In this document: one piece after another, positions 3,001-59,326 of the stretch | Layout of the letters: each line of letters begins with the position of its first letter | Position numbering within the stretch: the first letter of the stretch is position 1 | NCBI GenBank assembly: GCA_036172245.1 | Contig: JAYWIR010000005.1 | Span: forward strand, 2,356,001 to 2,420,000 | DNA from: Raillietiella orientalis | Lineage: Eukaryota | Direction: 5' to 3' | Length of the DNA: 64,000 nucleotides | Notes under the pieces: generated by a model | Database searches by the model: none | Told to the model about the DNA's origin: nothing | What the model saw: the letters and a program-made list of their open reading frames with translations, nothing else | Program-made: the position numbers and the translations under genes

Positions 3001-3207
3001 CTCGGCGTTGTCGGGGATGATTCCGGGGTGGACGCCCCTCATTCTGCAGGCTGTGGGGGTGGGCAAGCCTCCCCCACACCTACCTCCATCGTGGTGTCCT
3101 CAGGCATCGCTGCCATCGGACACCAACGATGTTCCACACGAACACACACAAAGAAAAAACCGCTTCCTGTCGACTCGCTCGGGAGCTCAGGAAAAGCACG
3201 TCCGCTC
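1..3207 (-). mobile_element. L1/Tx1-like non-LTR retrotransposon, subfamily B, 5' part (5' end, ORF1, APE, linker); runs off the left edge; disrupted
   Basis: 5' motif GAGCGGACGTGCTTTT (revcomp, ends ~3207). ORF 2190..2987 has two CCHC knuckles (CDAVGHLRKRC, CHLCGVKGHVPRVC). ORF 384..1151 has APE motifs NVYAP, GDFN, IDH, SDH. KAPGQDGLPAEFF is encoded near 120-160. Confidence 0.93.
1386..3116 (-). pseudogene. ORF1 (gag-like, zinc knuckle), frameshifted
   Basis: Pieces 2190..2987 and 1674..2036 are homologous to the intact ORF1 at 45275..47371; ends with ...SQE*. Confidence 0.85.
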
Positions 3208-6135
3208 GCCAAGGGATTTGGGGAAGGGCCGCGTGACGAAAGGTGCTATCTTCAGGCACGACGTTACGTGAGAACCCTCGACATGCGCAGGTTAGCAGAG
3301 TATCGAGCGGGAGCCGAGAGGCAAGCCTGGCAATCCGGGTCAACTAGCTTCCTGGACGACCATGGCCGGGAGCACTCGGCTCCTGCTCAGAAGCGCGGGA
3401 TTGTGAAGAAATTTTACTCCTCCCTGTACGCCAGGGCGCCTTCGGAGCAAGACGTCTCACGACTTCTGCTTCCGGAAGGTGCTCCAGCGATCGGGGAGGA
3501 GGAGAAAAGAAGCCTCGACGAGCCTTTCACAATGGACGAGATCCTCTCGGCCATCGGAAAGCTCAAGAGGCGGAAGGCTCCACGGGAGGACGGCCTGCCC
3601 GTGGAGTTTTACCAAACTTTTGCGGCTGAGCTTACCCCCCTGGTACAGCAACTCACCTTGCTGATTCGAGAGACAGGTGACGTTCCCACCTTGTTTCGTT
3701 CAGCAAAGGTGCGGCTCCTCCCGAAGGGAGGAGACCTAAGGAGCAAGAACAACTGGCGTCCCATCACAATAGTGAATGCGGACGCCAAGTTGATAGCCAA
3801 GATGTGGGCAGGGCGTCTGGGACGGGTTGCCAACATCTTGATCAGCCCGGAACAGCCTTATGCTGTTCCCGGGCGGAGCATGGCGGCGAACCTGATCCAC
3901 GCTTCCACATGGTTAGAGCTCCAACAAGGAAGGGGCTTATTAAGCAGCCGGAATTCCGGTGCGTCCGTTGGCGGGAGACGAAACGGTTGAGTGGGGAAGG
4001 GAGCCCTTGCGGTCGCTGTCGACTTGCGTAAAGCATTCGACAGCGTCGACCAGAATCTCCTGCTGGAGCTTCTGGAACGCTTGAGCTACCCGTCCTCTTT
4101 GTTGGCCTACCTGCGCTCCAGCTGGCGCGACGAGCTTATTAATGTTCTTGTCAGCGGGCCAACCGTGCACAGAGTACCGGTGCGTAGCGGCATACGGCAG
4201 GGAGACAGCCTGGGCCCCCTGCTCTTTAGCGCCTTTTTTGAATTGGTGCTGAGAGCGTACAGGGAGACTCTGACGCAGCTTATGCGCGATTGTCTTGGTA
4301 CGTGTGCGGTTTCGGCATAAGAGGACGATCTTCTGCTTCTGCTCCCTATGTCCACCCCGGCTGCGGCGGTCGAGGAGTTCTTCGACCTGCTGCATCGGGG
4401 AACCGGACTTACGGTGAACAGGGCGAAGTCGTCCGTGATGCCAGTTGGTGCGGCGTGGGCAGGGCAGCAGGACTGGGTCCATTTGGGGATCCCCACGGTG
4501 AGGTACTTCAAGTACCTTGGTGTGCCGTTGGGGGACTACTCCCCTGCGGAAGCGTGGTCCGGCTGCCTTCAAAAAGTAGAGACGGCGATCGGCCCGTTCC
4601 GAGGCGGCAGGTTTTTCCTGCCTGAACGGGCCGCGGTTTGGAACACGTTCGCGGCTCCTCTTCTCCGGCCCCTGCTTTCTGTTTGCCCCTCCACAGAGAG
4701 GATTAAAAAGCGGACAAAGGACCTCCTCCGTATCGCCCTTTGGGGCAACGGGAGGGCCCGAGTCCGCTCAAAGGACTTGTGCGCTCCTCGTCGGGATGGT
4801 GGTCTGGGCCTCCTGACGCTGGAGCGGCTGGAACTTCAGCTCCAGTTCCGCTTGTCGGCACTCGTTCCAGAGTTGTGGTGCACCTGTTGGTGCGTCCCTG
4901 CACGTCTCCTTCTCCAGCAAGCCACCGGCAAGACGGGACTGACGTCGTTTCTTGCACTCCGTCGCCGCGTCAACCGATGCGGACTCCAGCTACGGAGGGT
5001 GGCTGTGCTGTATTGGAAAAACCCAGGATTGGTCACCTGTCGCCCTCTGAACGGTTGTGCCTGGTTGCAGGAAACCGTTCGAACGTGGGGACAGTTCGGC
5101 ATGCAACACTCCCTACAGTAACGAAGGTTCCTGTTTGGGGGTTACAGAATTTGCACGCTCCGCGAGATTGTGGAGGATCCAAAGAAGAGAGCGTGGGTAG
5201 GAAGAACCCCCCTCGCTGCTGCGCTGCCCTCCCTGATGGAAGACCTGGACAGCGATGTTGCGGCGAAGTGGGTGGTTACAGTAACAATCTCCAGAAAGGA
5301 GAAGAATATAGGAGAGTGAAAGACGGGCCGGTTAACAGACGCTGCGACCCCGAGTACGCCTCCCAATGGACTTCTGCGCTGGGGCGCGCTGTTCGATGTT
5401 CCCATTGAACATCTGAAGTGGCCCCAGGTGCTCATGAACACTTCCGCCCTCCCCTTAAAATGGCAGGAGTCGGCTCTTTTGCTGCAGCACTGGGAACTCC
5501 CCTGCAACGCCCGCCGACTCCACTGGACCTGAGGAGCGGTGGACCCCAATTGCGTCAGGTGTGGGGAACGGGACTCACTCCCCCACCTGCTAGTGGATTG
5601 TGTTGCCCTTCGGCCCCTTTGGTTTCGCTTCGCCGCGGCCATCGGAATCCCCTGCGGCAACCCCAGGGACTCACTGAAAGCCCTCTTCGTTGCCGACGCC
5701 CTTCGGCCAGCGGCCATGTTAGCAGCTTTGTGCTGCCTACGCGGGATCGTTTCCGCTTGGAGCAAGGCTACGGCAGTACAACGCAACCAGGGTGCCATCC
5801 AGCCAGCCACCCAGTTCCAGAGGAGGGCGTCCCGATGGCCTCACCTGGATCTTTGAATACAGAAGGAGCTTGCCGGCATCCTGCAAAGGATGCAACGCCC
5901 CACCAGCAGCTGTGATCCCTTCCCTTACCCTCCCAACTTTTCTTTTCTTTTTTTGTTTGGTTTTTTGTTTTTCCCCTTCCCACTGCTGCCGTGGTGGACC
6001 GTACCGGTCTGCGAATCGGTAACCCGGCAGGCTCTGTGTTTCCTCGTGGGTGGCTGGAGCAATGGTCCAGCCACCGCACGTCTGTGTAAATGTTTATTTT
6101 ACAATAAACGCCCCGGCGAAATCCGGGTGAAAATC
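3208..6135 (+). mobile_element. L1/Tx1-like element, subfamily A, ORF2 linker-RT-CCHC plus 3' UTR (host remnant right of the 1-3207 insertion)
   Basis: KAPREDGLP, WRPITIVNADAK, DLRKAFD, GIRQGDSLGPLLF, *EDD (decayed YADD), KYLGV, CVRCGERDSLPHLLVDC. Terminal AATAAA-hairpin at 6103-6135. Confidence 0.93.
6103..6135 (+). terminator. Conserved 3'-terminal AATAAA + GC hairpin (representative copy)
   Basis: AATAAACGCCCCGG-CGAAAT-CCGGGTGAAAATC; 12 copies, each at an element 3' end. Function is inferred. Confidence 0.65.
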
Positions 6136-6666: not shown

Positions 6667-7844
6667 TCAGCCAGCATGTTGGACGAACTGGCCCGGAAAC
6701 GTTCGTCCCCGTCTGCGGTACGGAATCTCGTGCGGTGTTTTTATTTCTTTCTTTACGCCAAAACACCATCCGAACGGGACGCCTCACGGCGATTGCTCAT
6801 GAGTTTTTCCGTGGCGATAGGGGAGGAGGAGAGAGAAAGCCTCGATGAGCCTTTCACGACCGGTGAAATTCTCGCCGGTATCAGAAGGATCAAAAGGCGT
6901 AAGGCGCCAGGGGAAAATGGCTTGCCCGCAGAGTTCTTTCAGAGTTTCCCGGAAGATCTGGCCCCCCTGGTGCTCGAGTTGACAAGGCGAATCCGAGACG
7001 AATGCGATGTTCCCGCCTCGTTTCGGTCAACCAGGGTGAGGCTCCTCTCGAAGGGAGGAGACCTCAGGATACTTTGCAACTGGCGTCCGATCACGATTGT
7101 GAACACGGACGCCAAGTTCATCGCCGGGCTGCGGGCGTCGCGATTGGGGCAGCTGTCCAATTCCATAATTAGCCCGGAGCAGACTTACGCTGTTGCCGGA
7201 CGAAGTATGGAGGACAACCTCTTCTTCGCAAGCACACGGATGCACGCACAACGGAGTAGGAAAGAAGGGAAAGGGAAAATTTGCAACACAACTTTGGGTC
7301 CGCCAGTGGGATAGGGTAGTGACCCTCATGCGGGAAAGGAAGCCTTAGCAATCGCAGTCGACCTCCATAAAACATTCGACTGTGTTGACCAGGAACTCCT
7401 CTTGGATCTCCTGGATCGCATGGGCTTCCCACCCTCCTTGATTACCTACCTGCGCTCTTGCTGGCGGAACGCGATAATCTCGATTACTTCCAGTGGTCAA
7501 AAGGTGTAGGGCGTGCCGGTTCGGCGGGGCATAAGGCAGGGCGACAGCCTCAGCCCCCTGCTCTTTAGCATCTACGCTGAGTTGGTGCTGAGAGCGTACA
7601 GGGTGACTTTGGCCCCCTTGCCGAGCTCTTGCCCCGGCACGCCAGCCGTAGCAGCGTATGCCGACGATCTTCTGCTCCTCTTACCTATGTCCACTCTGGC
7701 AAAAGCAATCGGAGAATTCTTCGACCTGCTTAGCCACGGGGCCGCATTGCAAGTTAGCAGGGCAAAGTCGTCGGTGGTGCCATTTGGAGCGGCGTGGGCA
7801 GGGCAGCAGGACTATGTGTGTCTGGGGATCCCCACGGCGAGGTG

Positions 7845-7972
7845 ATTCTCAAGATCTTCTTGAGAATTGTATGTTTTCATGATTGTAGTCATTGCTTGAT
7901 GGTTTATTTGATGATTAGGTGGGGTAGGTAGTTATTATTTAAGAGGAAAATGATAGATAGGGATGGGAATGT
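7845..7972. other. ~130-bp AT-rich foreign insertion inside RT
   Basis: Interrupts the conserved GIPTAR-x-KYLGV stretch and is absent from all other copies in the window. Confidence 0.8.
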
Positions 7973-9409
7973 ATAAGTACCTTGGTGTGCCGTTGGGTGA
8001 CTACTCCCCTGCGGAAGCGTGGTCCAGCTGCCTCGAAAAAGTCGAGACGGCGATCGGCCCGTTCCTGGAAGGCAAGTTTCACTTGCCAGAACGGGCCGCG
8101 GTTTTTAACGCCTTCAAGGCCCCCATCCTCCGCCTCTTGCTTTTTGTTTGCCCCGCCCCGTGAAATCTAAAAAGCGGACGAAGGACCACTTCCGCATAGC
8201 CCTTTGGGGCAAGGGGAGGCCCCGCGTCCCTTTGAAGGACTTGTGCGCTCCGCGTCGGGACTGCGGTCTCAGCATCCTCACGCTGGAGCGTTTGGAAATC
8301 CAGCTGCGATGGCGAACCCTTGTCATCGCAGCGAAGATGTGGAGCACCGCTTGGTGCTTTCCAGCCCGCCTCCTGGCCAGGCGTGTGTCCCGATGCGAAG
8401 GAGTCGTGTCGTTTCTTCTGTGCCCAGGCCGGAAGATTCGAAGATGCGGTCTACTGCTCGGCCGCATGGCAACCACCCGGGAAGGAGAACGACTGAATGG
8501 TTTGTGGCCCCGTTAACTCCTCCGCTTGGCTGGAGGAAAATGCTAGCACCTCGGCCAAGCAGAACTAGATGTGCGAAGACCGGATGAACTGCCTGCGAGT
8601 CGGCTTTTACGCCCGCCGAACTCTCCGTGAAATTCTTGAATTTCCACTGAGTTGCACGTGAGCGGAAGGGACACTCCTTGCTACGGCGATGTCCTTCCTC
8701 CAAAAGGTGCTTAACGAAAGCCGGAAGCCGAGGTGGCAAGTCTGCTGCCGTATCGTAGACAGAGAGAAGATGATGAGCGGCTGGACCATGGGAGTTGACA
8801 GATGCGAGGACCCCTAGTCTCCAGCGTCGTAGATTAAGAAGATGAAGCGAGCTGCTCGGCATTCGATTGGATGACCTGAAGTGGCCCCCGGTTCTACTTG
8901 GATCCAGGATTCTTCCCCTGAAGTGGCAAGAATCGGCGCTTCTGTGGCTGCATTGGGGTCTACCCTGCAACGCGCGCCGCTTCCACTGGACGCGGGGAAG
9001 AGTAAATCCTGCGTGTGCCAGGTGTGGGGAGAGGGAGTCGCTCCCCCACCTCTTAGTTGAATGTCCTGCCGTCCAGATTCTTTGAGATCGTTTCAAATCG
9101 GCCCTTGGGATACCGGATGGTGGCAACGTTAGATTCGTTTACAGTCTTGTCTTCGTGCGGGACGCCCTCAGTCCAACCGCAGCCCTAAGAGCACATTGCT
9201 GCATTTGTGGTATCGTGGCAGCCTGGAGTGATGCCCAAGATGAAGACTGCATCGTAAGGGACGTCATCGAGTATGCTGTTCGCTTCCTGCAGAGAGCTAC
9301 TCGATGGCCCCATCTGGGAAAAATGAAAATGGAACTCGAAGGCATCCTGCAAAGGATGGGCCCTCCCAGCAGTTGTCTGTGATCCCTTCCCGGCCCTCCA
9401 AACTCCTTT

Positions 9410-9468
9410 TGTTGTTTTTTTGTTATTATTTTTATTATTATTATTATTATTTTATTTTATTTTTGTTT
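9410..9468 (+). repeat. (TTA)n / T-rich microsatellite expansion in a 3' UTR
   Basis: ttattatttttattattattattattattttatttt. Confidence 0.85.
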
Positions 9469-9631
9469 TCTTCCCCATCCCCTTCCACTGCCGAGGAGAG
9501 CCACACCGAACTACGAACCGGTGTCCCGGCAGGTCCGGTATTGCGTGGCCGTCAGTGAGGTCTTGTACCACGTTCTGTAATGACTGTAGACATGTTTTTT
9601 AATAAACGTTTCGGCGTACCCGAGTTGCATC

Positions 9632-10093
9632 GCCTAAACCTGAAGTGAGAAGGTTCAAGGGAAACTGGTCGCAGAACTCGCGGAGTGAGTTCTTCAAGTC
9701 GTCCCAGTCTGCGACTTACTGCAGATGGAAGCCTTGCAGGAACGAGCGAAGATGTTGCGCTGCTCCTGCGAGGCGCACCTAGTTCCTTGGCAAACGCCAC
9801 GCTGTGGAGGGTGGACCTCTACCGCGCGGGTCTATTTCTAGCACGAGCCGGGGATGGTCGGAAAGTACGGATGGTACTGCCCCTCGATTTCCCACCCGCG
9901 AACACAGGTGGTTGTCGAGCAACATGTGGTCGATCCTCGTCTCCGTCCCGGCGTCACCGGCCAACAAGTTGCGCGCGTGCATGGCGGCGCACATCTCGTT
10001 GACCAGCTGTGCGCGAATGTCGGGTGCGTTGAAGCAGGCGGACGTTAAAGTCCCCGGCAATGAGGTGCGCCTTTCGCATGTGTGCTTCGGTAA
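9632..10093 (-). mobile_element. APE C-terminal fragment, subfamily D
   Basis: KAHLIAGDFNVRLL..APDIRAQLVNE..RIDH..SDH..FPLNLLTSGLG; close to 53040-53491. Confidence 0.85.
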
Positions 10094-13000
10094 TGTTTTC
10101 GTGTAAGTGTAATGCTTGTGAAAGGCATCCACGATGTCCTCAGACGACTGTCGCTTTTGGCCGTCGTACTGGATGCAGAAGATATCTGTGACCAGATTTC
10201 TCTTCTCCAGCACGCCGACTTCCCCTTTTATGTTATTGAGGACGTACCGACTCTCGTACTGATCAAAGTACTTTGAGAGGAAGCGATCTTGGATGTTCAG
10301 CTCCCGGTACGCCTCTTGCCTCCAGCGCCTATCTCCGAACTGCATGTTCGCAAACAGGTGTATTTTGTGTTTCAGGATGTCCCAGTCGGCGACTCTTCGG
10401 ATTGTTGTTGCCCTCAGAATCGCCTCCAGGACAGCCTGATGTCCGGAATGGGTTTCGAACCAGGCGGGCATGCTGATGAGCGCCGCCCTGGTGCCTTGCC
10501 TCCGCCGAGGATTCTCCGTTCTTAGGGAAAACCGCACCAGGGGGTGATCGGACACCGTAGTCATAATGTCGCGAAACCCGTGGATGCGGTTCTTAAGTTC
10601 GGTGCTGTGCAGGACGTGATCGATCGGCTTGTGGCTTGCTGCTCGCCAGACCAGTCCGAACTCGTCGGATAGCCGTCGATACGCCGTCCTTCCTCTGGCG
10701 TCTTCTGAATGAATGATCTCATCCAAGATGTTGAGATCGCCAGCAACAATCACGACGTCCTTGGAAGCAACCTTTTCACGGAGTGCTGCATGCAGCGCCT
10801 CCGCACAACGATGTTTTAGACTGTGCGGCCCGTACACGTTCACCAGGATAAGGTGAACAGTTGCGGACCAGGCCAGTCGCACGCCGATGGTTCGTCCGGG
10901 TTGGGAGCAAAACACTTCCAGAATAGAGGGGACCAAGTGGTTCTTTATTAGCACCGCCACACCCCTGATCCATGTGTTCCGTGTTCGTGTTCCGTTCTCC
11001 TTCGCTGACGAACATCTGCCCGTTGAATCGCCGTTCCATTCGCTGGCTGATCTCGAGACCCATCCTGTGGGTCTCCTGCAGGCACACGATGTCTTGTTGT
11101 GCGATGATCCGCACAATCCTTCTTCTTTTTCCCTGGTCGACCACACCGTTTACGTTCCAAAAGGCGGTGTTCAGCCTCCTGGCGGTCGATAGGGAAAAGG
11201 TCATAGAAGGGGAAGACCTATTTCTTGGCCTTCCTGAGCTTCTTCTGTCTGGGAGAGCGTGCTCTTCAGACGTCGAAGAAGCAGCGGGCTTCTCGTTGCC
11301 GGCGTCACTCTCCGTACCTGTGAGGTCGGCAATTTCCGCCTCCTCCGTAGAGTGTTCCGCCCGCGCGATCAATTTTCGAGATAGCGCCTCTATCTCGACC
11401 TTGGCTTAGAAGTTCGCCTTCACGTCGAGAAGCTGTTCCTCTAACTTCTCGCGTTTAGCGACCTCCACAACCTGGTTGATGTTCTGTTGTGTGGTGCAGA
11501 TCTTCTGCAAGATTTTCTCTTGCTGAGGACCGCTCTGCACCTCCATGATCTCCTCCGCCAGTGTTGCCAACTCCTCCGTGGTCTGCAGAGCCTCCTGCGA
11601 CACTTTAGTGGCTTCCTCTCTCTCTTCCTTCGCGCCTTCCTGCGTTACCTCCATCTTCTCGCCTTCCTGCTCTGCTGCTTCTAGGATTTTAGGAATTCCT
11701 TGCTCCTTGACGAGCATCCTCCTCTTTCCTTTCTTTTCCACTTCTATGAAGGCGTTTGCGGACACCGGGACGGCTTCTTTTACCTTCTTCGGCCTTCCTG
11801 CCTTCTGAGGCTGTTCGGCCACCTTGATGTTTCTCTCTCTCACGGGAGAGAGACCTCGAATCCTTCTGCAGTTTTCAAACTTCGGACAGCTCCCTTCCGC
11901 ATGTCCGTGTTTCTTGCAGAAGGAGCACACCTCCGGCTGCGGGCAGTTTCGGACTTGATGTCCTACTTTGCCGCAGCGAAAGCAGCGGCAAGTTGGGCAA
12001 GCGCCGGCCCTGTGGCCGAACTGCTTGCACCCGGTGCAAAATACCGGTTGTTGCCGGTAACGCACATTCACTCCCTGGGATTGTTCGTCAATAACGGCCG
12101 ATCCAGGATCACCGCTCCCTCCTTCAACTTCATCTAGGCCATCATGTCGCCAGAAAATATGTTTCCAGAGAAGTTCTGGAAATCAAGGTCCAGAACTTCC
12201 CCAAACTGCTCCATGTAATTCCACACCGCTAGTTGCGGTGTAAGGATGGTGATGCCGTTTAAAAAGACGGTTGTGTATGGCATCTCGCCAATACCACAAA
12301 CCATCCGTCCTTGTATATTGATCCCCTTCTGGATCAATCGCTCTCTATTATTTTCACAGTCTGTAAAGACTGTGAACCCGTTGCTCGATGGAATGATCGC
12401 CTGAATGCGATCAAAGTCTATGTGCGTCTTTTCGAGAGACAAATAGACCTCCCTGATGTTATTAAATTTTATTAGCCCAGTCTTGAAGATAATGGGCGTC
12501 ACGTTGGGGTCTATTTCGGCTATTGGTCGGTCCACTTTTAGAACTTTTCCGCTAAGCGGCTTACAAAATTTCCTAGGTGGGTGGACACTCGCCTGTCCAG
12601 CCGCCACCGACGCATAAGAAAAGGGCTGCGACGCCGAAGCCGAACAAGATGGCGTCGCTCCCTGCACCGCGTGGACGGCCGCGGGTCTTGCCTGGGACGC
12701 CACCGCCGCGGGCGCAAACCTCGACGTTGCCGCCGTTACCGCCGCGGGCGGCACCCTCGGCATCGCCGCCGCAGGCGCGACCTTCCCCGCCGCGGGCACG
12801 ACCCTTGGCATCGCCGCCGCCGGTGCAGCAAAGCCCGCCGCGGGCGCGATTTTCGGCATGCCTGCCGCCACCTCGCCGTTGCCGCACGTTACCTCCATGG
12901 CTTCCATGGGGGACGATGGCCTCACCACTCCTCCAACTCCAGATGTGTGCATCCTGGCAGCTGTTCCGGCTGCTCGGAACGACTGCAGGACTTCCACCGT

Positions 13001-26359: not shown

Positions 26360-26376
26360 CACAGCGGGGATTCGGC

Positions 26377-38113: not shown

Positions 38114-38258
38114 TCGGAACGGACGTGTTTCCTCAGTGCTCCTCGTGCCGGGAACCGTCCCTAGGTGTAGGCTTCGTGTGTGATGGTGGTCGATCAGGCA
38201 GCAATGCCTGACACGACCACCAGTGCGTGTAAGAGAGCGGTAGCAACGTCGCATAATA

Positions 38259-38421
38259 AAGAAATGGACTGCCAGGTGTCGGCGGCAACGTCGCCTCCAG
38301 AAAAGCTCGAGTGCCAGGGGGCGGCGGCAACGTCGCCACCCGAAAAGTTAGAGTGCCAGGGGGCGGCGGCAACGTCGCCACCCGAAAAGTTAGAGTGCCA
38401 GGGGGCGGCGGCAACGTCGCC
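38259..38421 (+). repeat. 42-bp tandem repeat x~4 in ORF1 N-terminus (ECQGAAATSPPEKL)
   Basis: Repeated gagtgccagggggcggcggcaacgtcgccacccgaaaagtta; translation in ORF 38180..38971. Confidence 0.9.
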
Positions 38422-41400: not shown

Positions 41401-41688
41401 CTCCTACCTATGGGAGGAGATCTCAGGAGCATGAACTTTTGGCGTCCCATCACAACAGTGAATGCGGATGCCAAGGTGATAGTTGCCACCCGGTCACGCC
41501 GGGGCGTTTATTCAAAATTCTCTTGGGTTCGTGGTACGAGGCCCCACTACGGCCAACTCAACTGGACCTGCCGGGTCGCCGGTACGCAGACCGGCGCGAC
41601 TCTCCTCGGCAGCGGAAGGGGGTGGGGGAAAAAACAAAAAGAAAAATAAAACATAAAAACAAAAAGATTTGGGAGGGTTGGGGAGGGA

Positions 41689-44600: not shown

Positions 44601-45275
44601 GAATATCAACCGGAAATGGTCAGACAGCTCCGACGCAACTTTCCCCCGTTTGCCGACCCGTAAACACAGGTCGACATCCAGGAAGACGTGGTCGATGCTG
44701 CTGACCATTTCCGAAAGATCCCCTAACAAGTTGCGCGTGCGCATGGCGGCGCACAACTCGTTAGCCGTCCGTTCCTGTGCGTGTGGCTCACCTGTTAGCA
44801 GGCGGAGATTAAAGTCTCCCGCTATCAGGTGAGCCACGCACACGTTTGCTTCCGCCAGCCAGTCGTGCTCCAGGGTTTCCAGGAACTCCTTACGTTCCTG
44901 GTACCTGGTAGGACCGCTCGGAGCGTACACATTTGTTACGACGAGGTCGATCGTGTCGGACCACCTGAGAATCAGCTGGCCGACACGACCGGCTTCGTCG
45001 AAGCGCACGCCCTTCACGGCTGCGTCGACTGCCGGCTACATAAAAAACGCAACGCCGCAGGTGTATCGGGTGCCGCATTGCCACATCAACCGTCCCCCTG
45101 CGATCCTTTCGATCTCCTGGGCGTTCTCCGCGGTGATCACGTGGATCTCCTGCAGGAGTGCCAGGTCGAAGTCACGCAGGGTGGCGGCCGTGTCCCGTCT
45201 GTTGCCGTCGTCTCGCAGCCCATTGACGTTCCAGCAGGCCACGCGTAATCGACGGCGACAGGCGAGCCCAGATGT
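41689..45275 (-). pseudogene. ORF2 APE-RT-CCHC, frameshifted
   Basis: ORFs 45036..45242, 43383..45017, 41941..43485 and 41689..41919 are consecutive pieces with all motifs, including AYADD. Confidence 0.92.
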
Positions 45276-47371
45276 TACTCCTGGGAAAGTGGCAATGGGG
45301 CTCCCGCCACCTGGTCGGGCGGGACGGATGGAGGAACGGGATCACCGCGCACCGGTTCTCCCTCCTCCATGGGGGCCGATTCCTCGGCGGACAGCAATGG
45401 TTGAAGGGGGCGGGTTTCACGCACCTGCTCCCCCTCTTCCATGGGGGCCGATTCGTCGGCTGCGTTGGACGGCAGGGGGGAGCGGTTGTCAGCTGTCTGC
45501 TCCCCCTCCTCCATGGCTATCTCCTGGACAGGTTCCACCGTTGTGAGGGGGCGACAATCACTCACCTTATCCCCCTCCTCCATGGGGGTCTCCAGTTGCT
45601 CGGTAGCGGAGGGTGGGAAAATCCCTCCCTCCGTTCCCACGCTGCCGGCTTCCCCCTCGGATGCCGGTGCGTCCCCCTCCTTCTTTGTCGGGATGCGCCT
45701 TTTGGGATTCTTGGACTTCCGTCCAGTCTTCTTCGGAGGCGCCTCCGCGGAGGAGGACGCACTTCCGGCATCCGATTCGTGGTCACCTGTCCGAGGTGCC
45801 TTACTCGCGGCCGGCCTTTGCAAGGCCTTTCGCGCGCCGTTCTCACGCTCCGCGAGTTCGGCCGCGAGCTCTTCCGCCGCCTGCTGGAAGGCGGCGTCCT
45901 CGATTGCGGCGAGCGCGTCGCTCGGCTCCCCCTCTGTTTGCACAGAGGGTTCGCCTTTTTCGATCGCGGCTTCGGCGTCAACGAGGCGGGAGATATCTCC
46001 CCCGGTGGAGGTCTCGGGGATCTCCACTCGCTCCAAAGCGACCGAACATTCGCGGAGCAACGCGCGGCGTTGTCTCCTATTTAAAGAAGATGTCGCGGGT
46101 TCCGCTGTCGGTTCTTCGGTTTTCTTTAATTTTTTACTTTTAGGCTTCGCCTTATGCCAGTCCTCGCTCTCTCCAGCGTCGTCGGGAGTACCCTCGACCG
46201 ACGCTTGCTGCACGGGTTCGGGCTCTGGCTGTGGGTTCCGCCTCTCGGGTGCCTCCTTAGGCTTGTCCGATCGCCCTGCGCGTTTCCCTTTGGCTTTTTT
46301 CAAAGCAGGGGGAGCCGGGGTTTCGCGTTTAGGACACACCTTCCGCAGGTGGCCCTTTTCGCCGCAGTGGAAGCACTGGATGTGGGGGCACCGTTTTTTC
46401 AGGTGCCCTGTTGCATCACAGTGCCCACAGTACTTGGGCTTGCCCACGTACCAGACGTCGACGACCTCGTTGCCGACGTCGAGTTTGTGGGGCAGCCCAC
46501 CGTTTTCGTGGACCGTCACACGCGCTGCAGCCATGCCACTGAACAGTCTTCCGTATGTTTGGAAGACGTTGGGCTTGTTCCAGAGCGCGTGCACCGTACC
46601 ATGTTTTTGTAACTCTTCCTGCACGCCAGCTTTGGTCATGCAAAGAGTTACACCCGTAAGGTGGGCAACAATGGAGCGGTCCTCCGTTACAGGGAAGACC
46701 TTTCGGCCTTCCAGAGTGATGGGAGTGTTCAGCAGGCGTTGAGCCAGACTTGCATTTTTGCACGTCAGCTCCACCCGCTGGCCCCCACTCATCACGGAGA
46801 GACCTTCCAGGTCTTCCTCTTTAACATCCAACCGCTGTAACTCCCTTTCAAAGTTACGAGCGGTGTTCCCTATAAACAGGTTTCCTACCTTGTAAATCAA
46901 GGACGGCTTGTATCCTTGTTCCAGGTAGGCCCGTTGTTCTGCTAAGGCAGCAGGAGATGGCGCTGCAGCCACGGAGCTCCAGGTCTTCGTGCATGGAGCA
47001 GGTGGATCCAAGGACGCGGTTGCCCTCTTTTTCAAGGAGGCGTTTGCGCCCTTTTCCAAGGCGGCGGTTGTCCCCTTTTTCAAGGGGGCGGTTGCGACCT
47101 TTTCCAAGGCGGCGGTTGTCCCCTTTTTCAAGGGGGCGGTTGCGGCCTTTTGCACGAGGACGGTTGCTCCCTTTTTCAAGGTGGCAGTAGCCCTCGTTTC
47201 CGGAGAGGCAATTGCCCCCTTTTTCAAGGGAGCGGTTGCTCTCTCCTCCGTGAGAGCAATTGCCCCCACCTCAATAGGTTGGGGAGAGGAGCAATCCTCT
47301 TCCCCGCCTCCTTCCATCGCGGTGTCCTCAGGCATTTCTGCCATTGGACACCGCAGATGCTCCACACACAA
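45275..47371 (-). CDS. ORF1 gag-like nucleic-acid-binding protein (two CCHC knuckles, long low-complexity tail); real start probably the ATG near 47344
   Basis: 698-aa open frame; CGHCDATGHLKKRC, CFHCGEKGHLRKVC. Confidence 0.9.
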   Translation of the reverse strand: MCVEHLRCPMAEMPEDTAMEGGGEEDCSSPQPIEVGAIALTEERATAPLKKGAIASPETRATATLKKGATVLVQKAATAPLKKGTTAALEKVATAPLKKGTTAALEKGANASLKKRATASLDPPAPCTKTWSSVAAAPSPAALAEQRAYLEQGYKPSLIYKVGNLFIGNTARNFERELQRLDVKEEDLEGLSVMSGGQRVELTCKNASLAQRLLNTPITLEGRKVFPVTEDRSIVAHLTGVTLCMTKAGVQEELQKHGTVHALWNKPNVFQTYGRLFSGMAAARVTVHENGGLPHKLDVGNEVVDVWYVGKPKYCGHCDATGHLKKRCPHIQCFHCGEKGHLRKVCPKRETPAPPALKKAKGKRAGRSDKPKEAPERRNPQPEPEPVQQASVEGTPDDAGESEDWHKAKPKSKKLKKTEEPTAEPATSSLNRRQRRALLRECSVALERVEIPETSTGGDISRLVDAEAAIEKGEPSVQTEGEPSDALAAIEDAAFQQAAEELAAELAERENGARKALQRPAASKAPRTGDHESDAGSASSSAEAPPKKTGRKSKNPKRRIPTKKEGDAPASEGEAGSVGTEGGIFPPSATEQLETPMEEGDKVSDCRPLTTVEPVQEIAMEEGEQTADNRSPLPSNAADESAPMEEGEQVRETRPLQPLLSAEESAPMEEGEPVRGDPVPPSVPPDQVAGAPLPLSQE
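47010..47245 (-). repeat. ~24-bp/48-bp degenerate tandem repeat in ORF1 (ATAPLKKG / TTAALEKG)
   Basis: Repeated ccctttttcaagg...gcggttg units; visible in the ORF1 translation. Confidence 0.85.
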
Positions 47372-47689
47372 ACACTACCGAAAAAGAACGCTTTACAACA
47401 GGCGCAGAGAAGCGCGGAAAAAACACGTCCGCACGCCAAGTTGATAGCTAAGGTTTCGGCTGAGAGTTTGGGACGGGTTGCAAACGCCTCCATCAGCCCG
47501 GAACAGACGTATGCTGTTCCGGGGCGAAGCATGGAGGCGAACCTGTTCCACGCTTTCACCTGGCTAGAGCTCCAACACGAAAGGGGCTTGATGCGCACCG
47601 GGAATTCCGGTGAGTTTGTTAGCCATGCGACGGATGGTCGGATGGGGGAGGGAGCACTTGCGATCGCTGTGGACTTGCGTAAAGCATTC

Positions 47690-49119
47690 GATTTTTGCCC
47701 TGATTTCCCTGGGCGTTTATTGTTTAATAAACAATCACGAAGACGTGCATTGGCTGGACCTTTGCTCCAGCCACGCACGAAGAAACACAGAGCCTGCCGG
47801 GTCACCGGTTCGCAGACCGGTACGGTCCACCACGGCAGCAGGGAGAAGGGGGAAAAACAAAAAACAAAACAAAAAAGAAAAGAAAAGTTGGGAGGGTACT
47901 CGAAGGGATCACAGTTGCTGGTGGGGCCGTTGCATCCTTTGCAGGATGCCGGCAAGCTCTTGCTGCATGCCTGGATCCAGGTGAGGCCATCTGGACGCCC
48001 TCCTCAGGAAATGGGAGGCTAGCCGGATAGCACTCTGGTCTTGTTGTCCTCCCGTAGCCTTGCTCTAGGCGGTGACCATCCCGCAAAGGCAGCACAGGGC
48101 TGCTAACGAGGCCCCTGGCCGAAGGGCGTCGGCAACGAAGAGGGCTTTCAGAACGTCCCAGGGGTTGTTGCACGGGATTTCGATGGCCGCGGCAAAGCGA
48201 AACCAAAGGAGCCGAAGGGCAACACAATCCACTAGCAGGTGGGGGAGGGACTCCCGTTTTCCACACCTGACGCAATTGGGGTCCACCTCTCTCCAGGTCT
48301 TGTTGTGTCGACGGACGTTGCAGGGGAGTCCCCAGTGCTACAACAGGAGATCCGACTCCTGCCATTTCAAGGAAAGGGTGGAGGTGTTCATTAGTACCGG
48401 GGGCCACTTCGAACTTTCAATGGGAACGTTGAGCAGCGCGCCCCAGCGAAGTAGTCCATGGGGAGGCGAACTCGGGGTGGCAGCGTCTGTTAACTGGCCC
48501 GTCTTCCACTCTCCTATCTTCTTCTCCTTCCCGGAAATTGTTACTGTAACCTCGCACTTCGCCGCAACATCGCTGTGCAGATCTTAAATCAGGGAGGGCA
48601 GCGCAGCAGCGAGGGGGGTTCTTCCTGCCTACGCTCTCTTCTTTGGATCCTCCAGGATCTCGCGGAGCGTGCAGCTCCTGTAACCCTTAAACAGGAACCT
48701 TCGTTTTTATTGTGAGCGTTGCATGCCGAACTGTCCCCACGTTCGAACGGTTTCCTGCAACCAGGCACTACCGTTCAAAGGGCGACAGGTGACCAATCCT
48801 GGGTTTTTCCGGTACAGCGCAGCCACCATCCGTAGCTGGAGTCTGCATCGGTTGACGCGGCGACAAAGTGCAAGAAACGACGTCAGTCCCGTTTTGCCGG
48901 TGGCTTGCTGGAGAAGAAGACGTGCAGGGCTTCCCCAACAGTTCTCCACAACTCTGGAACAAGTGCCGATATTCGGAACTGGAGCTGAAGCTCCAGCCGC
49001 TCCACCGTCAGGAGGCCCCGACCACCGTCCCGACGACGAGCGCACAAGTTTTTCAAGCGGACTCGGGCCCTCCCGTTGCCTTAAAGTGCAATACGGAGGA
49101 GGTCCTTTCTCCGCTTTTT
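47690..49119 (-). mobile_element. Subfamily A element, 3' 1.4 kb
   Basis: Inverted close homologue of 4703-6135, including 3' UTR and terminal motif ending AAAATC. Confidence 0.92.
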
Positions 49120-50869
49120 AGTTTGACAAAGGACAAGGGGCCTCATTAGAAGAGCCCTCTGGGGCAATCGGAGGCCCCGCGTCCGTCTTAAAGACCTGTG
49201 CGCTCCACGCAGGGACGGTGGACTTGGTCTCCTGACGCTGAAGCGCATGAAGCGACAGCTCCAATTCCGTAAACTTGCCCTTGTGGCAAAGTACTGGACC
49301 TCACCCTGGTGTGCACCTTCACGACTGCTGGCTCACAGGGCAACCGGCTGCCATGGATTGACCTCAATCCTAGTATCCAACGACCGCAGCCTTAACCACT
49401 GTTGTTTTCAGCTTCGAAAATTGGTTGCCCTGTTGAGAGACAATCCGTGGATCTCCTGCATCCCAGCGGACTGGACTACCTGGCTACAGGAATCCGTTTC
49501 CGCATGGGCTACAATCAACGGCTCCAGCGATGAGGACTTCTCCTGACTCCGTAGAGGCAGGCACGCTGGTCAGTCACTGCAGGAGATCGTCAGCAGCCCA
49601 CGGAAGCTTCTGTGTTCCTCCTTTACCCCCCTTGCCCCAGTGCTGCCCTCCCTCAGGGAAGTTCGTGACAGCCGCCAGGAGGCATCGTGGGAAGTGTGCT
49701 GCTTCATCGGAGGCAGGAAAAAATTATTGAAGGCGTGGACGTCTCGGGAACTAGCGGACGCTAGTACCCCGAGTGTCCCGCCGAATGGACTTTCACGCTG
49801 GGGCGCGCTGCTCGAAGTACCTCCGGAGGAAATGAAGTGGCCCCCGGCGTCGTAAGATAACGGCACCCTTCCCCTGCAGTGGCAGGAGACGGCTTGCTTC
49901 TGCTCCATTGGGGACTGTTAAGAAGAGCGCGCTTGTCTCTCTGGACACACGGGAGTTTGCACCCGGTCACGCCGGGGCGTTTATTCCTAAACACTTTGTT
50001 TTCGCGGTACGAGGCCCCGCTACGGCCAATAGTTCTTTAGACCTGCCGAGAAGCTGGCTCGCAGGCCGGCTTGACTCTCCTCCGCGACGGAGGGGTTAGA
50101 GGGTAAAAACGAAAAGAAAAATAAAAGAAATAAACGAAAAGAAACTATTTGGACGGCCGGGAAGAGATCAGAACCCGCTGGAGGAAGAGACCATCCTTTC
50201 GAGGTTGGTCACAGGACACACGGGAGTGTGGATGCTTATTGCCCAGACTGTGAAGAACGAGAAACCTTTCCTCACTTTATTGTTGAGTGCGTTGCCCTAC
50301 GCGATATCTGGGACCGACTCTCGTCGATATTGAACATTCCGCGGGGCAATCCGAAGAACATTTTTCGACTCCTGATGCGGGACGCCTTGCCAGCTTCCGG
50401 GTGTGTAGCGGTGCTTTGTTGCATACGCGGAATACTGGACAAGTAGACCGCGTCAAGGAGAGGACATGCCAGTCGGAATGCCATCCACTGGGCAACCATC
50501 TCCTTGGAGAAGGCCTGCCGTTGGCGCCGACTTGGGAAACACTTACAGGCACTCGTGCGCATACGTGACCGGATGCAGAGGCCTTCTCACGGGGTACCGT
50601 GATTCCTACCCTTTCCTCTTCTTCCCGAAGAACATTGCCCCCCAGACGTTTTCTTTTTTTTTTTTCCTCTATTTTTGTTTTTCCCCGCCCCATCGCCAGT
50701 GTTGAAGACCATATCGGCCTTCGGATCGGTAAGGACAAGTGCCTCAATACAGTCTGGCAAAGTTTCCAGACTGAAGAAAACTTAATTGAAGAAATATGAC
50801 TTTATTATAGAATTTTGTGCACTTGAAAAATTTTAGTAATAAAAGCCCCGGCTCACCCGGGTGAAAAAC
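49120..50869 (+). mobile_element. Subfamily C-like element, ORF2 C-terminus and 3' end
   Basis: RVRLKDLCAPRRDGGLG, EEMKWPPAS, CPDCEERETFPHFIVEC. Terminal motif 50838-50869. Confidence 0.88.
49955..50213 (-). mobile_element. ~260-bp 3'-UTR-only insertion with TSD
   Basis: ggacacacggga(gt) at 49943 and 50214. The insert has the 3' UTR layout and terminal motif of subfamily B. Confidence 0.9.
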
Positions 50870-50900
50870 CCACTGTTGGACGATGCGGCCCACCTTCGCC

Positions 50901-53491
50901 GTGGTCGCACGCGTTTTTGGTGAGCTCCCGCGAGCGTAACCAAAAGCACTTTTTGTGAGTGTGGAAGTGCGGCCGTTGGAAGGCAGAAATGCCTGAAGAC
51001 GCCGTAGTACCTGCGACGGGAGACGTGAGGCCCATGTCTCCCCAACCCATGGAGGTGGGGTCATGCCCCACCACAAAATCAGCCCCAGCCACCCCGGCAA
51101 GGGCGTGGAACAAGGTGGCCGCGGCGGCTCCGCAGCTGCAGAAGTGCAGGCCTACATAAAGGAGGGCTACAACCCTGCCCTCCTTTACAAGGTAGGAAAT
51201 CTTTATTCTTCGCTAACTACGCGGAAATTTGGTAACGCCATCCGTAGGATGGGCATTACAGAGGAAGACATTCTGTGCTTCTCGGAACGGAGCGGAGGGC
51301 AGTTCGCGGAGCTCATTTGCAGAGATGCAGCGCTCACGCACAAACTGCTCTGCACGCCCGTTCCGTTCGAAGAACGGAATCTTCTCCCACACACGGTGGA
51401 TCACTCCATGGTAATCCACCTAACCGGTACAACGGTGCGGATGAGCGACGAAGCCATTCTCACTGAAATCAACAAGTTCGCGGAGATATACGCGATGTGG
51501 TCGAAACCCAACGCCTTTACTTATCGAGGCGCATTCAGTGGGCAAGTTACCGCACACGTAACTCTCCGCGAAAACAAAGAACTTCCCCACAATCTGGAAG
51601 TCAACGACGAGCTCGTTGACCTCTGGTACGTAGGGAAGGAAAAATACTGTGGGCTGTGCAACACGTTTGGTCACCTCAAAGAGAGATGCCCGGACGCCAC
51701 ATGCCGAACGTGCGGCGCTAAGGGTCACACTACTGCTGTGTGCCCGAAAAACGCCGCGACAACGCCTTCAGCCCCTTCGACAAACGAGGGGAAGAAGGCA
51801 GAATTTAAAGCAAAGAGCGATGGAAAGCCGACTTCAGAAGAAGTCGTGCACAAGGAGCAGGAGCCTCAAAAGGAGACTTCTGATCCAAATGCCGACGAGG
51901 AAGGCTGGAAAGTCGTATCAAACAAAAAACCTAAGGAAACACAAAATAAACCAAAAATGCCTACAAAAAATTATAAAAATCAGAACGCGAGCGTTCCGAA
52001 AAAACCCGCGAACGGCCAACCGAAAATTTCGCCGCGCGAGTCGATAAAGGAATGCCGCGTTACAATCGAGCGCGTTCCGTCAATCGAGCGTCGATCGGCG
52101 AACGCGACTCCCGGAACCGTCGCGAACGCCGCGGAACCGCCGCAGGAATCCTGCGACAAACACGCGAGCAGCAGCGACGAGAAAAACTTCGCGAAGGCGG
52201 CGGAGGAACTCGCGGCCACCATTATGCAGCCGCCTAAGACTGCAAAGAAGGCCGTGAGACGTCCGGAGGAAGCCAAAGGACCGAAAACTTTCGAGGCCGA
52301 GGCGGAAGCCGGAAACGCTCCCACCGTCGCCCTCCCGAAAAGAAAGGCGGGCCGGAAGTACCGCAACCCTATGTGCGTCGCTCCCCCTCAGGCTGAGGAG
52401 GAGGAAATGCGCTCGAGTAGCGGGGAGGCGATGTCCGCGAGGTCGCGGGATCCCTCCAAGGAAACCGCCCGGTCCGATCTTCCGATCGACCTCGGTCCGG
52501 CTGCCGACGTTCCGGTCGCTGCGGAAACGCCGTCCATGCAGGTGAACATCGACCAGCCGCCTCCCGAACAGGAGGCGGCTACACAATCGCCACCACCATT
52601 ATTAGCATGATGTGCGGAATCGCGTCTTGCCGGCAGCTGCGTATAGCCTGTTGGAATGTCAACGGGCTGCGTAACGAAAGCAAGAGGCGTAGCGTGGCCG
52701 ACACCCTGCGACCTTTCGACCTGCCTCTTCTCCAAGAGGATCACGCCCTCAGGGGAGAGGACGTCCAGGAGATCGAGAGGCTTACAGGAGGAAGCCTACT
52801 TTGGCGATCCGGTGGAGACCACTCCCGCGGAGTGGCCTTCCTGCTGAAGCCAGCCATCGCCAAGGCAGTGCGCAGTATTCAGTTCGACGAGGAAGGTCGA
52901 GTTGGGCAACTTGTCCTCAAGTGGTCCGGATCGATCGACCTCGTGGACACGAACGTATACGCGCCCTGCAGCAGCCACAGGCGCGGAGAACGCACTGCGT
53001 TCTTCGAAGCCCTGCGGCGAGACTGGTTGGCCGAAACAGGCGTGCGGCGAACACACATGATAGCGGGAGACTTCAACGTCCGCCTGCTGTCGGAAGCGCC
53101 CGACATAAGAGCACAACTGGTCAACGAGTTGTGTGCGTCGGTGAACGCGCGCAACTTGTTGGCCGATGAAGCCGACGTGAATCGCAGAATCGACCACGTG
53201 TTCCTCGATAAACAGCTGTGCACGCGGGTGGGTACTCGAGGCGCACTTGCGTCGGAGCTGTCCGATCAGCCTCGGCTAGTGCTCACCATCCATCCGCGCG
53301 ACAGAGGTCCACCCACCGAAGCGTGGCGCCTGCCGGGAGACTGGTTGCGACTCGCAGGAGCGCGCGAACATCTGCGTGCATTCCTGCGTGGTTGCGAACT
53401 GCAGACTCTCGCTGACTGGGACAAAATAAAACGCTCACTCCGAGAGTTCTGCGACCAGTTTCCCCTCCATCAACTTCCTTCAGGTTTCGGC
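50901..53491 (+). mobile_element. Subfamily D element, 5' part (ORF1 with early frameshift, APE)
   Basis: ORF 51063..52610 has CGLCNTFGHLKERC and CRTCGAKGHTTAVC. APE ORF starts at 52607 and is cut at FPLHQLPSGFG. Confidence 0.92.
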
Positions 53492-55610
53492 GATGTTACC
53501 CGGATACGCCAAGACGTTTATTAAAAACATTTCAACAGTCAATACAGAACGTGGTACAAGGCCACACTGACGGCCACGCTATACCGGAACTGCCGGAACA
53601 CCGGGACGCAGCTCGGTGTGGCTCTCCTCGGCAGTGGAGGAGGATTGGGGAGAAAAAAAAATAAAAGAAAAGAGAAAAACAAACCACAAAAAAAAGTTTG
53701 GAGGGCCGGGAGGGGATCACAGAAAACTGCTGGGAGGGCCCATCCTTTGCAGGATGCCTTCAAGTTCCATTTTCAGTTTTGCTCGATGGGGCCATCGGAT
53801 AGCTCTCTGCAGGAAGCGAGAAGCATACTCGATCACGTTCCTCACGATGCAGTCTTCATCTTCGGCATCACTCCAGTCCGCCACGATACCACGAATGCAG
53901 CAAAGTGCTGCCAGGGCTGCGGCTGGACTGATCGCGTCCCGCGCGAACACAAGACTGTAGACACATCCAACATTGCGAGCATCCGGTATCCCAAGGGCCG
54001 TTTTAAGACGATCCCAAAGAATCCGGACGGCAGGGCATTCCACTAAGAGGTGGGGGAGCGACTCCCGCTCCCCATACTTGGCACACGCAGGATTTACTCT
54101 TCTTTGCGTCCAGTGGAAGCGGCGCGCGTTGCAGGGTAGACCGCAATGCAGCCACAGAAGCGCTGATTCTTGCCACTTCAGGGAAAGAATCCTGGATCCA
54201 AGTAGAACCGGGGGCCACTTCAGGTCATCAAATCGGATGCTGAGCAGCTCGCCTAATTTTCTTAATCCACGCGGCTGGAGACTAAGGGTCGTTGCTTCTG
54301 TCAACTCCCCCATGGTCCAGCCGCTCATCATCTTCTCTCTGCCTGCGATACGGCAGCAGACTTGCCACCTTGGCTTCCAACTTTTGTGGAGCTCCCTTTG
54401 GAGGAAGGGCATCGCCGTAACAAGGGGTGTGCCTTCCGCCCACGTGTACCTCGGTGGAAATTCAAGAATTTCACGAAGAGTTCGGCGGAAGTAAAAGCCG
54501 ACTCGCAGGCAGTTCATCCGGTCTTCGCACCTCTAGTTCTGCTTAGCACAGGTGCCAGCAGTCTCTTCCAGCCAAGCGGAGAAGTTGGCGGGCCCACAAA
54601 CCATCCAGTCGTTCTCCTTTGCCAGGGTTGCCATGCGGCCGAACAGTAGACCGCATCCTCGAATCTTCCGGCCAGGGCACAGAAGAAACGATGCGAGTCC
54701 TTCGCAGCGGGACACATGCCTGGCCAGGAGGCGGGCCGGAATGCACCAAGCGGTGCTCCACATCTTCGCTGCGATGGCGAAGGTTCGCCATCGCAACTGG
54801 ATTTCCACGCGCTCCAGCGTCAGGATGCTCAGATCGCCGTCCCGACGCGGAGCGCACAAGTCCTTCAAAGGGAAACGGGGCCTCCCCTTGCCCCAAAAGG
54901 GCTATGCTAAGGAGGTCCTTCGTCCTCTTTTTAACAACTCCTGGGGCGGGGCAAACAAAAAGCAAGAAGCGGAGGATAAGGGCCGCAAAGGCGTTCAAAA
55001 CCACGGCCCGTTCTGGCAAGTGAAACTTGCCTTCCAGGAACGGGCCGATCGCCGTCTCCACTTTTTGGAGGCAGCTGGACCACGCTTCCGCAGATGAGAA
55101 GTTTGCGAACGGCACACCGAAGTTCTTGATGCACCTTACCGTGCGAATTCCCAGATGGACCCAGCCCTGCTGCCCTGCCCACGTCGCTCCAACTAGGAAC
55201 ACCGACGACTTCGCCCTGTTAACCTGTAATCCGGCCCCACGGCTAAGCAGGTCGAAGAAATCTCCGAACGCCTTCGTCCGGGTGGACATAGGTAAGAGGA
55301 GCAGAAGATCGTCGTCATACGCCTCTTTGGCTGGCGTGCCGAGGCACGAGCTCGGCAATGGGGCGAAAGTCACCCTGTACGCTCTCAGCACCAACTCAGC
55401 GTAGGTGCTAAAGGGCAGAAGGATTAGGCTGTCGCCCTGCTTCATGCCCCGCCGCACCGGCACGCCATACACCTTTTGTCCACTGAAAGTAATCGAGATT
55501 ATCGCGTTTCGCCAGCAAGAGCGCAGGTAGGAAATCAAGGAGGGTGGGAAGCCCATACGACCCAGGATCTCCAAGAGGAGTTCCTAGTCAACACAGTCGA
55601 ATGCCTTGTG
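53492..55610 (-). mobile_element. Subfamily B' element, RT (from HKAFD) to 3' end
   Basis: Inverted homologue of 7365-9631; ORFs 54543..55574 and 53717..54517. Confidence 0.92.
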
Positions 55611-59306: not shown

Positions 59307-59326
59307 CGAGTGCGGACGTGTTTTTC
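59307..59326 (+). promoter_or_regulatory. Conserved 5'-terminal motif GCGGACGTG(T/C)TTT (representative copy); candidate internal promoter/initiator
   Basis: Recurs at element starts ~3207(-), 19107(-), 26359(-), 30873(-), 38119, 47434(-), 55619, 57001, 59311; variant at ~50906. Function is inferred. Confidence 0.6.

Follow-up and report, generated by a model that had tools for sequence, protein, structure and literature searches.

Repeated antisense insertion of an L1-like LINE lineage at one ORF2 site of its relatives in a retrotransposon nest of Raillietiella orientalis

The stretch of the Raillietiella orientalis genome analysed here (assembly GCA_036172245.1, contig JAYWIR010000005.1, positions 2,356,001 to 2,420,000, forward strand; this 64-kb stretch is hereafter the window, and all coordinates refer to it) is, in every portion examined, a nest of L1-like long interspersed nuclear elements (LINEs). 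One lineage of these elements, designated B, has repeatedly inserted in antisense orientation at one exact nucleotide within the codons of open reading frame 2 (ORF2) of its relatives. The nucleotide is the last one of the motif FPLHxLPxGFG, which lies between the apurinic/apyrimidinic endonuclease (APE) and reverse transcriptase (RT) domains, and the position is referred to below as the GFG site. Junction position, strand and target-site duplication (TSD) recur at this site in several independent events that took place in diverged host elements.

Seven junctions were found at the GFG site. At all of them the sense strand of the host ends with ...GG(A/T)TT(C/T/A)GG(C/G), which is the last Gly codon of the motif, and at each of the four 3' junctions the antisense end of the insert, G(T/A)TGCCACCCGG..ACGCC.., comes directly after the host. 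These 3' junctions are located at 20574, where the host (+ strand) ends with ...CCTGCGAGATTTGGG (longer reading ...AGATTTGGG; ARFG), at 26377 (+ strand, ...CAGCGGGGATTCGGC, longer reading ...GGATTCGGC; RGFG), at 53492 (+ strand, ...TCAGGTTTCGGC, longer reading ...GGTTTCGGC; SGFG) and at 9631 (- strand, ...TCAGGTTTAGGC, longer reading ...GGTTTAGGC; SGLG). At the three 5' junctions, the conserved B 5' terminus, ...CACGTCCGCTC, precedes the host, which resumes with GCCAAGGGATTTGGGGAAGGG at 3207 (AKGFGEG; the TSD copy GCCAAGGGATTTGGG is followed by GAAGGG), with CACAGCGGGGATTCGGC at 26359 and with ACAGGTTCCGTCGACGGG at 30876 (TGSVDG; the decayed GFG copy ACAGGTTCCGTC is followed by GACGGG). When hosts were aligned by codon, H9, the left part of H2 and H53 all broke off at a common column, where the second Gly codon has its last base, and H1 and the right part of H2 began 12-15 nt before that column; all visible junctions (4/4 at the 3' side and 3/3 at the 5' side) are thus placed by the alignment at one column or 12-15 nt before it. 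This bears out a first, sequence-only reading of the window, which had counted seven junctions at one site and noted that they bracket ca. 12 nt; the bracketed stretch corresponds to a TSD. When the terminal 120 nt of each B-type 3' end were used as queries, six such ends were detected in the window, four of them at the GFG site, and by our own arithmetic (seven resolved events, a target of ca. 6 kb, two strands) the chance of hitting the same nucleotide would be about 1e-15. Non-independence of the events, which is rejected below, was the one serious alternative.

The seven junctions correspond to five insertions. In the first case, X1 (1..3207, - strand), a B-type copy that continues past the left edge of the window, adjoins by its 5' end the host H1 (3208..6132, + strand), a member of another lineage termed the A clade; H1 is present from the GFG TSD copy GCCAAGGGATTTGGG up to its 3' terminus. 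The second and third cases involve a single host, H2, in which B1 (20574..26359, - strand; full length) and B2 (26377..30876, - strand; both termini present, internal deletion in ORF1) occur in tandem. The APE region of H2 (19700..20573, + strand) ends with ...AGATTTGGG in front of B1, the two inserts are separated by a 17-nt remnant of the host (CACAGCGGGGATTCGGC; 26360..26376, + strand) that constitutes a shared copy of the GFG TSD, and the right part of H2 (30877..33825, + strand) starts with the decayed copy ACAGGTTCCGTC GACGGG and has its own 3' end antisense in the element E34, after ...RELV. In the fourth case, B'a (6667..9631, + strand), a 5'-truncated element of the B' group with its 3' end at 9631, faces H9 (9632..10100, - strand), which ends with ...TCAGGTTTAGGC at 9632 and probably continues at 6416-6666 (- strand) after a deletion of ca. 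28 codons. B'a is interrupted at 7848-7974 by an AT-rich stretch of 128 bp which begins with a short palindrome, TTCTCAAGATCTTCTTGAGAA, is absent from B'b and has no match elsewhere in the window. In the fifth case, B'b (53492..55620, - strand) is inserted in H53 (50906..53491, + strand; 5' region, ORF1 and APE), which ends with ...TCAGGTTTCGGC, and the 5' end of E55 (55621, + strand) in turn interrupts the HKAFD codons of B'b. The four host copies belong to three diverged host lineages, namely H1, H2 and H9/H53.

BLAST self-comparison indicated that the window is made up of copies that interleave, are 65-96% alike and belong to one superfamily of retrotransposons lacking long terminal repeats (non-LTR retrotransposons), with a GC content of 52-63% per 2 kb throughout. 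A full-length copy has ca. 6 kb, with an ORF1 encoding a CCHC knuckle and an ORF2 that encodes an endonuclease (Exo_endo_phos) and a reverse transcriptase (RVT_1) and also matches zf-RVT weakly. Two copies served as coordinate references, the reverse complement of 41482-47500 (ref41) and E61, an open ORF2 located at 61283-63999, the latter matching the Pfam models Exo_endo_phos (E 3e-11) and RVT_1 (E 3e-19). Among proteins of solved structure, human L1 ORF2p is the best relative (E 1e-45; best R2-type chain 5e-15), and of the 32 database homologues, none of which is a named one, a single one exceeds 30% identity. Judging from these domains, the elements can be classed as APE-encoding, L1-like non-LTR retrotransposons.

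The ends of the elements are highly regular. All 12 of the 3' ends examined (e.g. 20574-20618, 41482-41526 and 6100-6132) carry AATAAA, a 5-bp GC hairpin (CCCGG, loop, CCGGG) and a short tail of 6-7 nt, which is GGGTGGCAAC in B (with variants in B') and GGGTGAAAA in A; none of the 12 has the poly(A) tail typical of L1. The hairpin pairs are all retained in ten of these ends, including B'a in which a C-G pair is replaced by U-A through a compensatory change, and one pair is broken in each of the other two. The 3' terminus is precise at 6/6 B ends, and the 5' termini of the different lineages have CGGACGTG(T/C)TTT in common. Two B-type copies had been singled out by the earlier reading as using other sites, and both indeed do so with 12-nt TSDs: ref41 (41482..47429, - strand), a young full-length copy inserted antisense in the A-clade element H40 at its NADAK(L/V)I codons (TSD GCCAAG(G/T)TGATA, 11/12 positions matching; H40 flanks at 40005-41481 and 47430-47692, + strand), and a 5'-truncated copy of 259 bp (49955..50213, - strand) in E49, with a perfect 12-nt TSD, GGACACACGGGA, at 49943-49954 and 50214-50225. 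Since the GFG junctions bracket the same length as these off-site TSDs, the second nick would be located ca. 12 nt upstream of the first. Both the TSDs and the 5' truncations are as expected from target-primed reverse transcription. Overall, five of eight B-type elements occupy the GFG site in antisense, two are elsewhere with TSDs and one (E58) appears to be elsewhere according to its 5' junction, in agreement with the preference, short of an absolute rule, that had been proposed from the sequence.

The B lineage is probably engaged in a lineage- and strand-specific, target-primed integration at a strongly preferred ORF2 site of its relatives. The endonuclease of the element itself, possibly together with neighbouring parts of ORF2, would read the site and place the first nick in the sense strand of the relative's ORF2 directly after GG(A/T)TTYGG(C/G), at the second Gly of FPLHxLPxGFG between APE and RT. 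The freed 3'-OH would then prime the cDNA from the precise, non-polyadenylated 3' end (...AATAAA, hairpin, GGGTGGCAAC), and such priming on the sense strand from the 3' end of the insert would leave every new copy antisense to its host. A cut of the second strand ca. 12 nt upstream would produce the 12-nt duplication over the xGFG codons, of which one copy may have been reused to give the B1-B2 tandem with its 17-nt spacing. In the sister lineage A, the same process may take place at TTCGAT| in the codons of RT motif A (KAFD; see below). Target-specific LINEs have most of their copies at the same nucleotide and strand of a repeated target as the result of independent events, and this holds for the B lineage, with five of eight elements at GFG, and for the A clade, with four of five resolved events at KAFD.

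The 9-mer RGWTTHGGS occurs 22 times in the window compared with 15.1 expected, nine times in the GFG codon context and 13 times outside of it. Five of the nine are at a B junction and none of the 13 others has been used (own hypergeometric p ~0.005), which indicates that recognition extends beyond the 9-mer. The endonuclease protein rather than RNA pairing would provide the specificity, with a recognised site presumably longer than 9 nt. It is unlikely, in our assessment, that pairing between nucleic acids, and not recognition by a protein, mainly determines the site. Pairing could take two forms, one in which read-through transcripts of GFG copies bear a tail that complements the nicked GFG strand, as has been proposed for R1, R2 and SART1, and one in which the RNA of the insert, through its homology to the host, opens the host duplex so that the sense strand is exposed. 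The cDNA of an antisense insert in a homologous host is complementary to the host sense strand, and a specificity that reaches past the 9-mer would suit this explanation, as would the two foldback junctions described below if they result from annealing during resolution. However, the mature 3' terminus is the same on-site and off-site and displays no target-derived tail, hosts are just 62-73% identical to B elements, which is poor for an R-loop, and homology alone leaves the choice of one nucleotide unexplained.

The five GFG inserts most likely represent five, and at least four, independent insertions, a figure derived statistically. Had a compound unit been duplicated, equal divergence of host and insert would be expected; in all four pairs tested, inserts are two to three times less diverged than the hosts that carry them: B'a and B'b differ at 171/1601 positions (10.7%) and their hosts H9 and H53 at 99/451 (22%; p 3e-9), B2 and B'b differ by 13% and H2-left and H53 by 36% (p 2e-30), B2 and B'a by 12% and H2-left and H9 by 35% (p 2e-25), and X1 and B1 by 9% and H1 and H2-right by 28% (p 8e-44). 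Differences are concentrated at the third codon position between B1 and B2 (0.21/0.16/0.38 at positions 1/2/3; chi-square p 1e-20), between H9 and H53 (0.26/0.13/0.43; p 2e-6) and between H1 and H2-right (p 3e-11), and because of this bias the members of each pair must have diverged as functioning elements before the insertions took place. Identity profiles are moreover mosaic, with sharp switches from ca. 90% to ca. 65-70% when 1-3207 is compared with 23003-26361 and when 6667-9631 and 53492-55620 are compared with 26377-29185. X1 and B1 are 90-93% identical over 1.4 kb in the 5' part of ORF2 and 63-77% in ORF1 and the 5' untranslated region (UTR); B' and B2 are 83-91% identical (ca. 88% overall) over ca. 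1.5 kb and 62-79% over the 3' 1.2-1.4 kb. Such switches suggest recombination or template switching among active lineages. In the ORF2 tree, ref41 is joined by the groups (E58,(B1,X1)) and (B2,(B'a,B'b)), with every sub-clade supported at 100/100, and a topology in which the five GFG inserts form a single clade is rejected by the approximately unbiased (AU) test (p 0.00018).

Two explanations would reduce the number of insertions. The first, which is very unlikely, is that ectopic gene conversion or a homing-like repair used an occupied host copy as template for an empty one; this would account for inserts being more alike than their hosts at an identical junction. No excess of identity between H9 and H53 is seen beside the junction, however, where the value of 0.82 over 60 nt (0.65-0.79 beyond) does not exceed general conservation (e.g. 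0.87 between the unrelated E61 and E16) and is below the 0.89 of the inserts; the mosaic profiles and the codon-position test moreover show X1/B1, B2 and B' to be separate active lineages, and conversion could at most link B'a with B'b. The second and least probable is that compound units of host plus insert, derived from one or two ancestral insertions, were multiplied through segmental duplication or through retro-mobilisation of an interrupted host, with the shared junction inherited instead of re-created. In its favour, 7981-10056 does align by BLAST with 55122-53064 across the junction (85% identity), the differences between B'a and B'b are uniform and almost neutral and the 3'-region tree alone leaves monophyly of the GFG inserts intact. 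This explanation is contradicted by the divergence gap in 4/4 pairs (p <=3e-9), the codon-position bias, the mosaic profiles, the AU test and the tandem of B1 and B2, which share one host although they are 25% diverged and bear a signature of selection. A single ancestral compound insertion was also the outcome that the sequence-only reading had named as fatal to its proposal, with particular suspicion of the pair 9631/53492; the unequal divergence of hosts and inserts leads to its rejection for that pair as for the others.

Several observations weigh against repeated, site-specific insertion and have to be set beside the above. All of the evidence comes from one 64-kb window. The comparison of B'a with B'b is near neutral (p 0.46 for the second half, 0.014 for the first) and uniform at 85-91%, so that the host contrast is the sole argument for the independence of these two. 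The AU rejection depends on the grouping of E58 with B1 and X1, and the site of E58, off GFG in the ORF1 of E55, is known from its 5' junction alone; the 3'-region tree, in which B1, B2, ref41 and B' form a polytomy, is compatible with monophyly of the GFG inserts. As for the site, 12 elements retain it and only four are occupied (H1, H2, H9 and H53), the eight empty ones (X1, B1, B2, ref41, H40, E14, E16 and E61) being much like the occupied ones, except that in three copies only (B1, X1 and B2) an A replaces the G just past the nick position, giving GFGKG, too few cases to speak of immunity. Two to three of eight B copies are off-site, and comparison of the targets at 41482 and 49955 with the GFG site revealed no convincing similarity. 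Between the APE domains of B and non-B elements, 15 of 285 positions are diagnostic of B, and these are scattered and define no assignable specificity loop; the region around aa 193-203, which might contain the specificity hairpin, varies even inside B. External support is also scarce, since the shared 3'-end motif pattern was found at 0 loci in metagenome contigs and 0 in genome contigs, and a search for related loci returned two short ones of 38-40% identity that are of no use in this respect.

A second hot spot was found for the A clade, whose members insert antisense exactly after ...(A/G)GC(N)TTCGA(T/C) in the RT motif-A codons DLxKAFD. Four of five resolved A-clade events are at this position (TTCGAT|). 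The 3' end of H1 lies at 6133 after ...AAGGCGTTCGAT| of an E61-like fragment (6133-6410, - strand), and that of E48 (47693..49121, - strand; A clade) lies at 47692/47693 after ...AAAGCATTCGAT| of H40. The 5' end of H40 (38120..41481, + strand) adjoins at 38120 the KAFD codons of E36 (- strand), its own GFG site at 40900 being empty, and the 5' end of E55 adjoins at 55621 the HKAFD codons of B'b. The exception is H2 in E34, as mentioned above. Membership of the A clade is indicated by the ORF2 tree, in which H1 and H40 are sisters (100/99) with H2-right next, by the 3'-region tree, in which H1 and E48 are sisters (100/100) again with H2-right next, and, for E55, by an 84.5% similarity to the ORF1 of H40. 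The KAFD hosts belong to four different lineages, among them B' and A itself, and it follows that each of A and B inserts into the other as well as into third parties.

The two lineages are thus partitioned, with five GFG and no KAFD events for B and no GFG and four KAFD events for A (Fisher p 0.008). Sister lineages dividing target sites within a shared host element had been suspected from the sequence; the division itself is upheld, whereas the single shared host is not, since the hosts belong to at least three diverged lineages. The loose core common to both sites that had been proposed at the same time was likewise retained in part, in that TTCG(G/A)N| is present on the host strand at 4/4 KAFD sites but at only 2/5 of the junction-adjacent GFG copies (six when the decayed copy of H2-right is counted).

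Orientation was also considered for the rest of the window. The two hot spots account for nine of the 13 antisense element-in-element junctions; the remaining ones are E14 into E16, H2 into E34, ref41 into H40 and, in E49, the 49955 copy. At up to four other junctions the two elements share a strand (E36|E34, E49|H53, E55|E58 and E58|E61). Given this split of four to four away from the hot spots, antisense orientation is a property of the sites and follows no general rule. The same-strand junctions are arranged head to tail: at 55621-59313 the ORF1 of E55 is followed by the 5' end of E58 at 57003, and E58 stops at ...AGDFN before the 5' end of E61 at ca. 59308; the 3' end of E36 stands beside the ORF1 of E34 (35998); and the 3' end of E49 is separated by 35 nt from the 5' region of H53 (50870-50906). 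They could have originated by sense-strand insertion or by truncation. Twin priming or inversion was rejected as the source of the antisense layout, as the host joins the intact 3' terminus of the insert and TSDs flank the insert.

Foldbacks were noted at ca. 6650 (arms 6441-6486 and 6814-6859) and ca. 49121 (arms 48945-49112 and 49131-49298). At both, a 5'-truncated antisense insert meets the host strand where the homologous ORF2 coordinates of the two almost coincide, and the stretch of host from the target site to the meeting point is missing, a configuration that would fit annealing of the cDNA to the complementary host sense strand while the integration was being resolved.

Other features of the nest were also observed. 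The segment at 10100-13800 (- strand), which adjoins H9, is a divergent APE-RT element with its own ORF1 whose ORF2 is 24-28% identical to that of E61, and represents a different LINE family in the same nest. The most similar pair in the window, with 95.6% identity, is formed by 6134-6407 and 62750-63024; because the small host fragment of H1, which is E61-like, hardly differs from the open ORF2 of E61, the E61 lineage was active recently. Tandem repeats with periods of 24-56 nt and variable copy number occur in the 5' part of ORF1 or in the 5'UTR of several elements (38270-38421, 47007-47267, 55730-55811, 24941-25058 and 12702-12868).

External data were examined as well. One close protein, P0001 (59% identity), begins downstream of the GFG site, and the Protein Atlas contained generic APE-RT clusters only, from which no usable taxonomy emerged. 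A single sequencing run contained 0.06 of the sampled words; 820 of its contigs were placed on 36000-55999, most of them less than 90% alike, and the "opposite strand" contig joints, among those listed, link homologous coordinates of paralogous copies (e.g. 44835 with 53046).

It is conceivable, although we stop just short of favouring it, that sibling L1-like lineages form a guild in which the most conserved ORF2 codons of one serve the others as dedicated, strand-specific landing pads, with B at the GFG linker and A at KAFD. If so, each new copy would disable a competitor and at the same time create fresh targets, so that the nest would renew itself and the rest of the genome would be spared; the difference between TTCGAT| and TTYGGS| in sister lineages would point to a recent switch in endonuclease specificity; and a mechanism at the nucleotide level would become available for Zepp-like nested clusters, such as those at algal centromeres. 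Should the pattern hold genome-wide, it would provide a natural pair of close endonucleases with different target specificities, a model of safe-haven targeting with transposition itself regenerating the target, and a case of transposons disabling competitors.

Self-nesting LINEs have been described previously. In Coccomyxa, Chlorella and Chlamydomonas, Zepp and ZeppL are reported to insert by a nesting mechanism directed at copies already present (PMC8226300), and nested Zepp clusters to be GC-richer than the remaining genome (PMC3446292). Like the elements described here, these are L1-type LINEs forming clusters of nested insertions into existing copies. As far as the Zepp accounts cited go, the window differs from them by its nucleotide-precise site, fixed antisense orientation and partition between lineages, and several of its inserts are full length whereas Zepp arrays consist mostly of 3' ends. 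Cnl1 of Cryptococcus is likewise described as inserting into itself, in tandem (sense) subtelomeric arrays; in the window, by contrast, 9/9 hot-spot events are antisense, at defined ORF2 codons, and several sibling lineages are hit. Such clusters are regarded as putative centromere marks in green algae and are subtelomeric in Cryptococcus, and how new copies find old ones is left unexplained in the portions of these accounts on which we draw. The literature search retrieved no LINE with a codon-precise antisense target in sibling ORF2s, nor sister lineages with two such sites, although the original Zepp papers may bear on this point. Self-nesting as in Zepp and Cnl1 is known, and a single-nucleotide antisense site in ORF2 is a sharper version of it.

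Target-specific LINEs form the other group for comparison, with R1 and R2 in 28S rDNA, TRAS and SART in telomeric repeats, and Tx1L in the Tx1D transposon, the last showing that another transposon can be the target. The elements of the window resemble them in their precise, strand-specific insertion in a conserved multicopy target and in the use by related lineages of different positions or strands of one target. They differ from this group in that the preference, strong as it is (5/8), is not absolute, and in that the target is the coding sequence of their own relatives, including, for the A clade, the motif of the RT active site.

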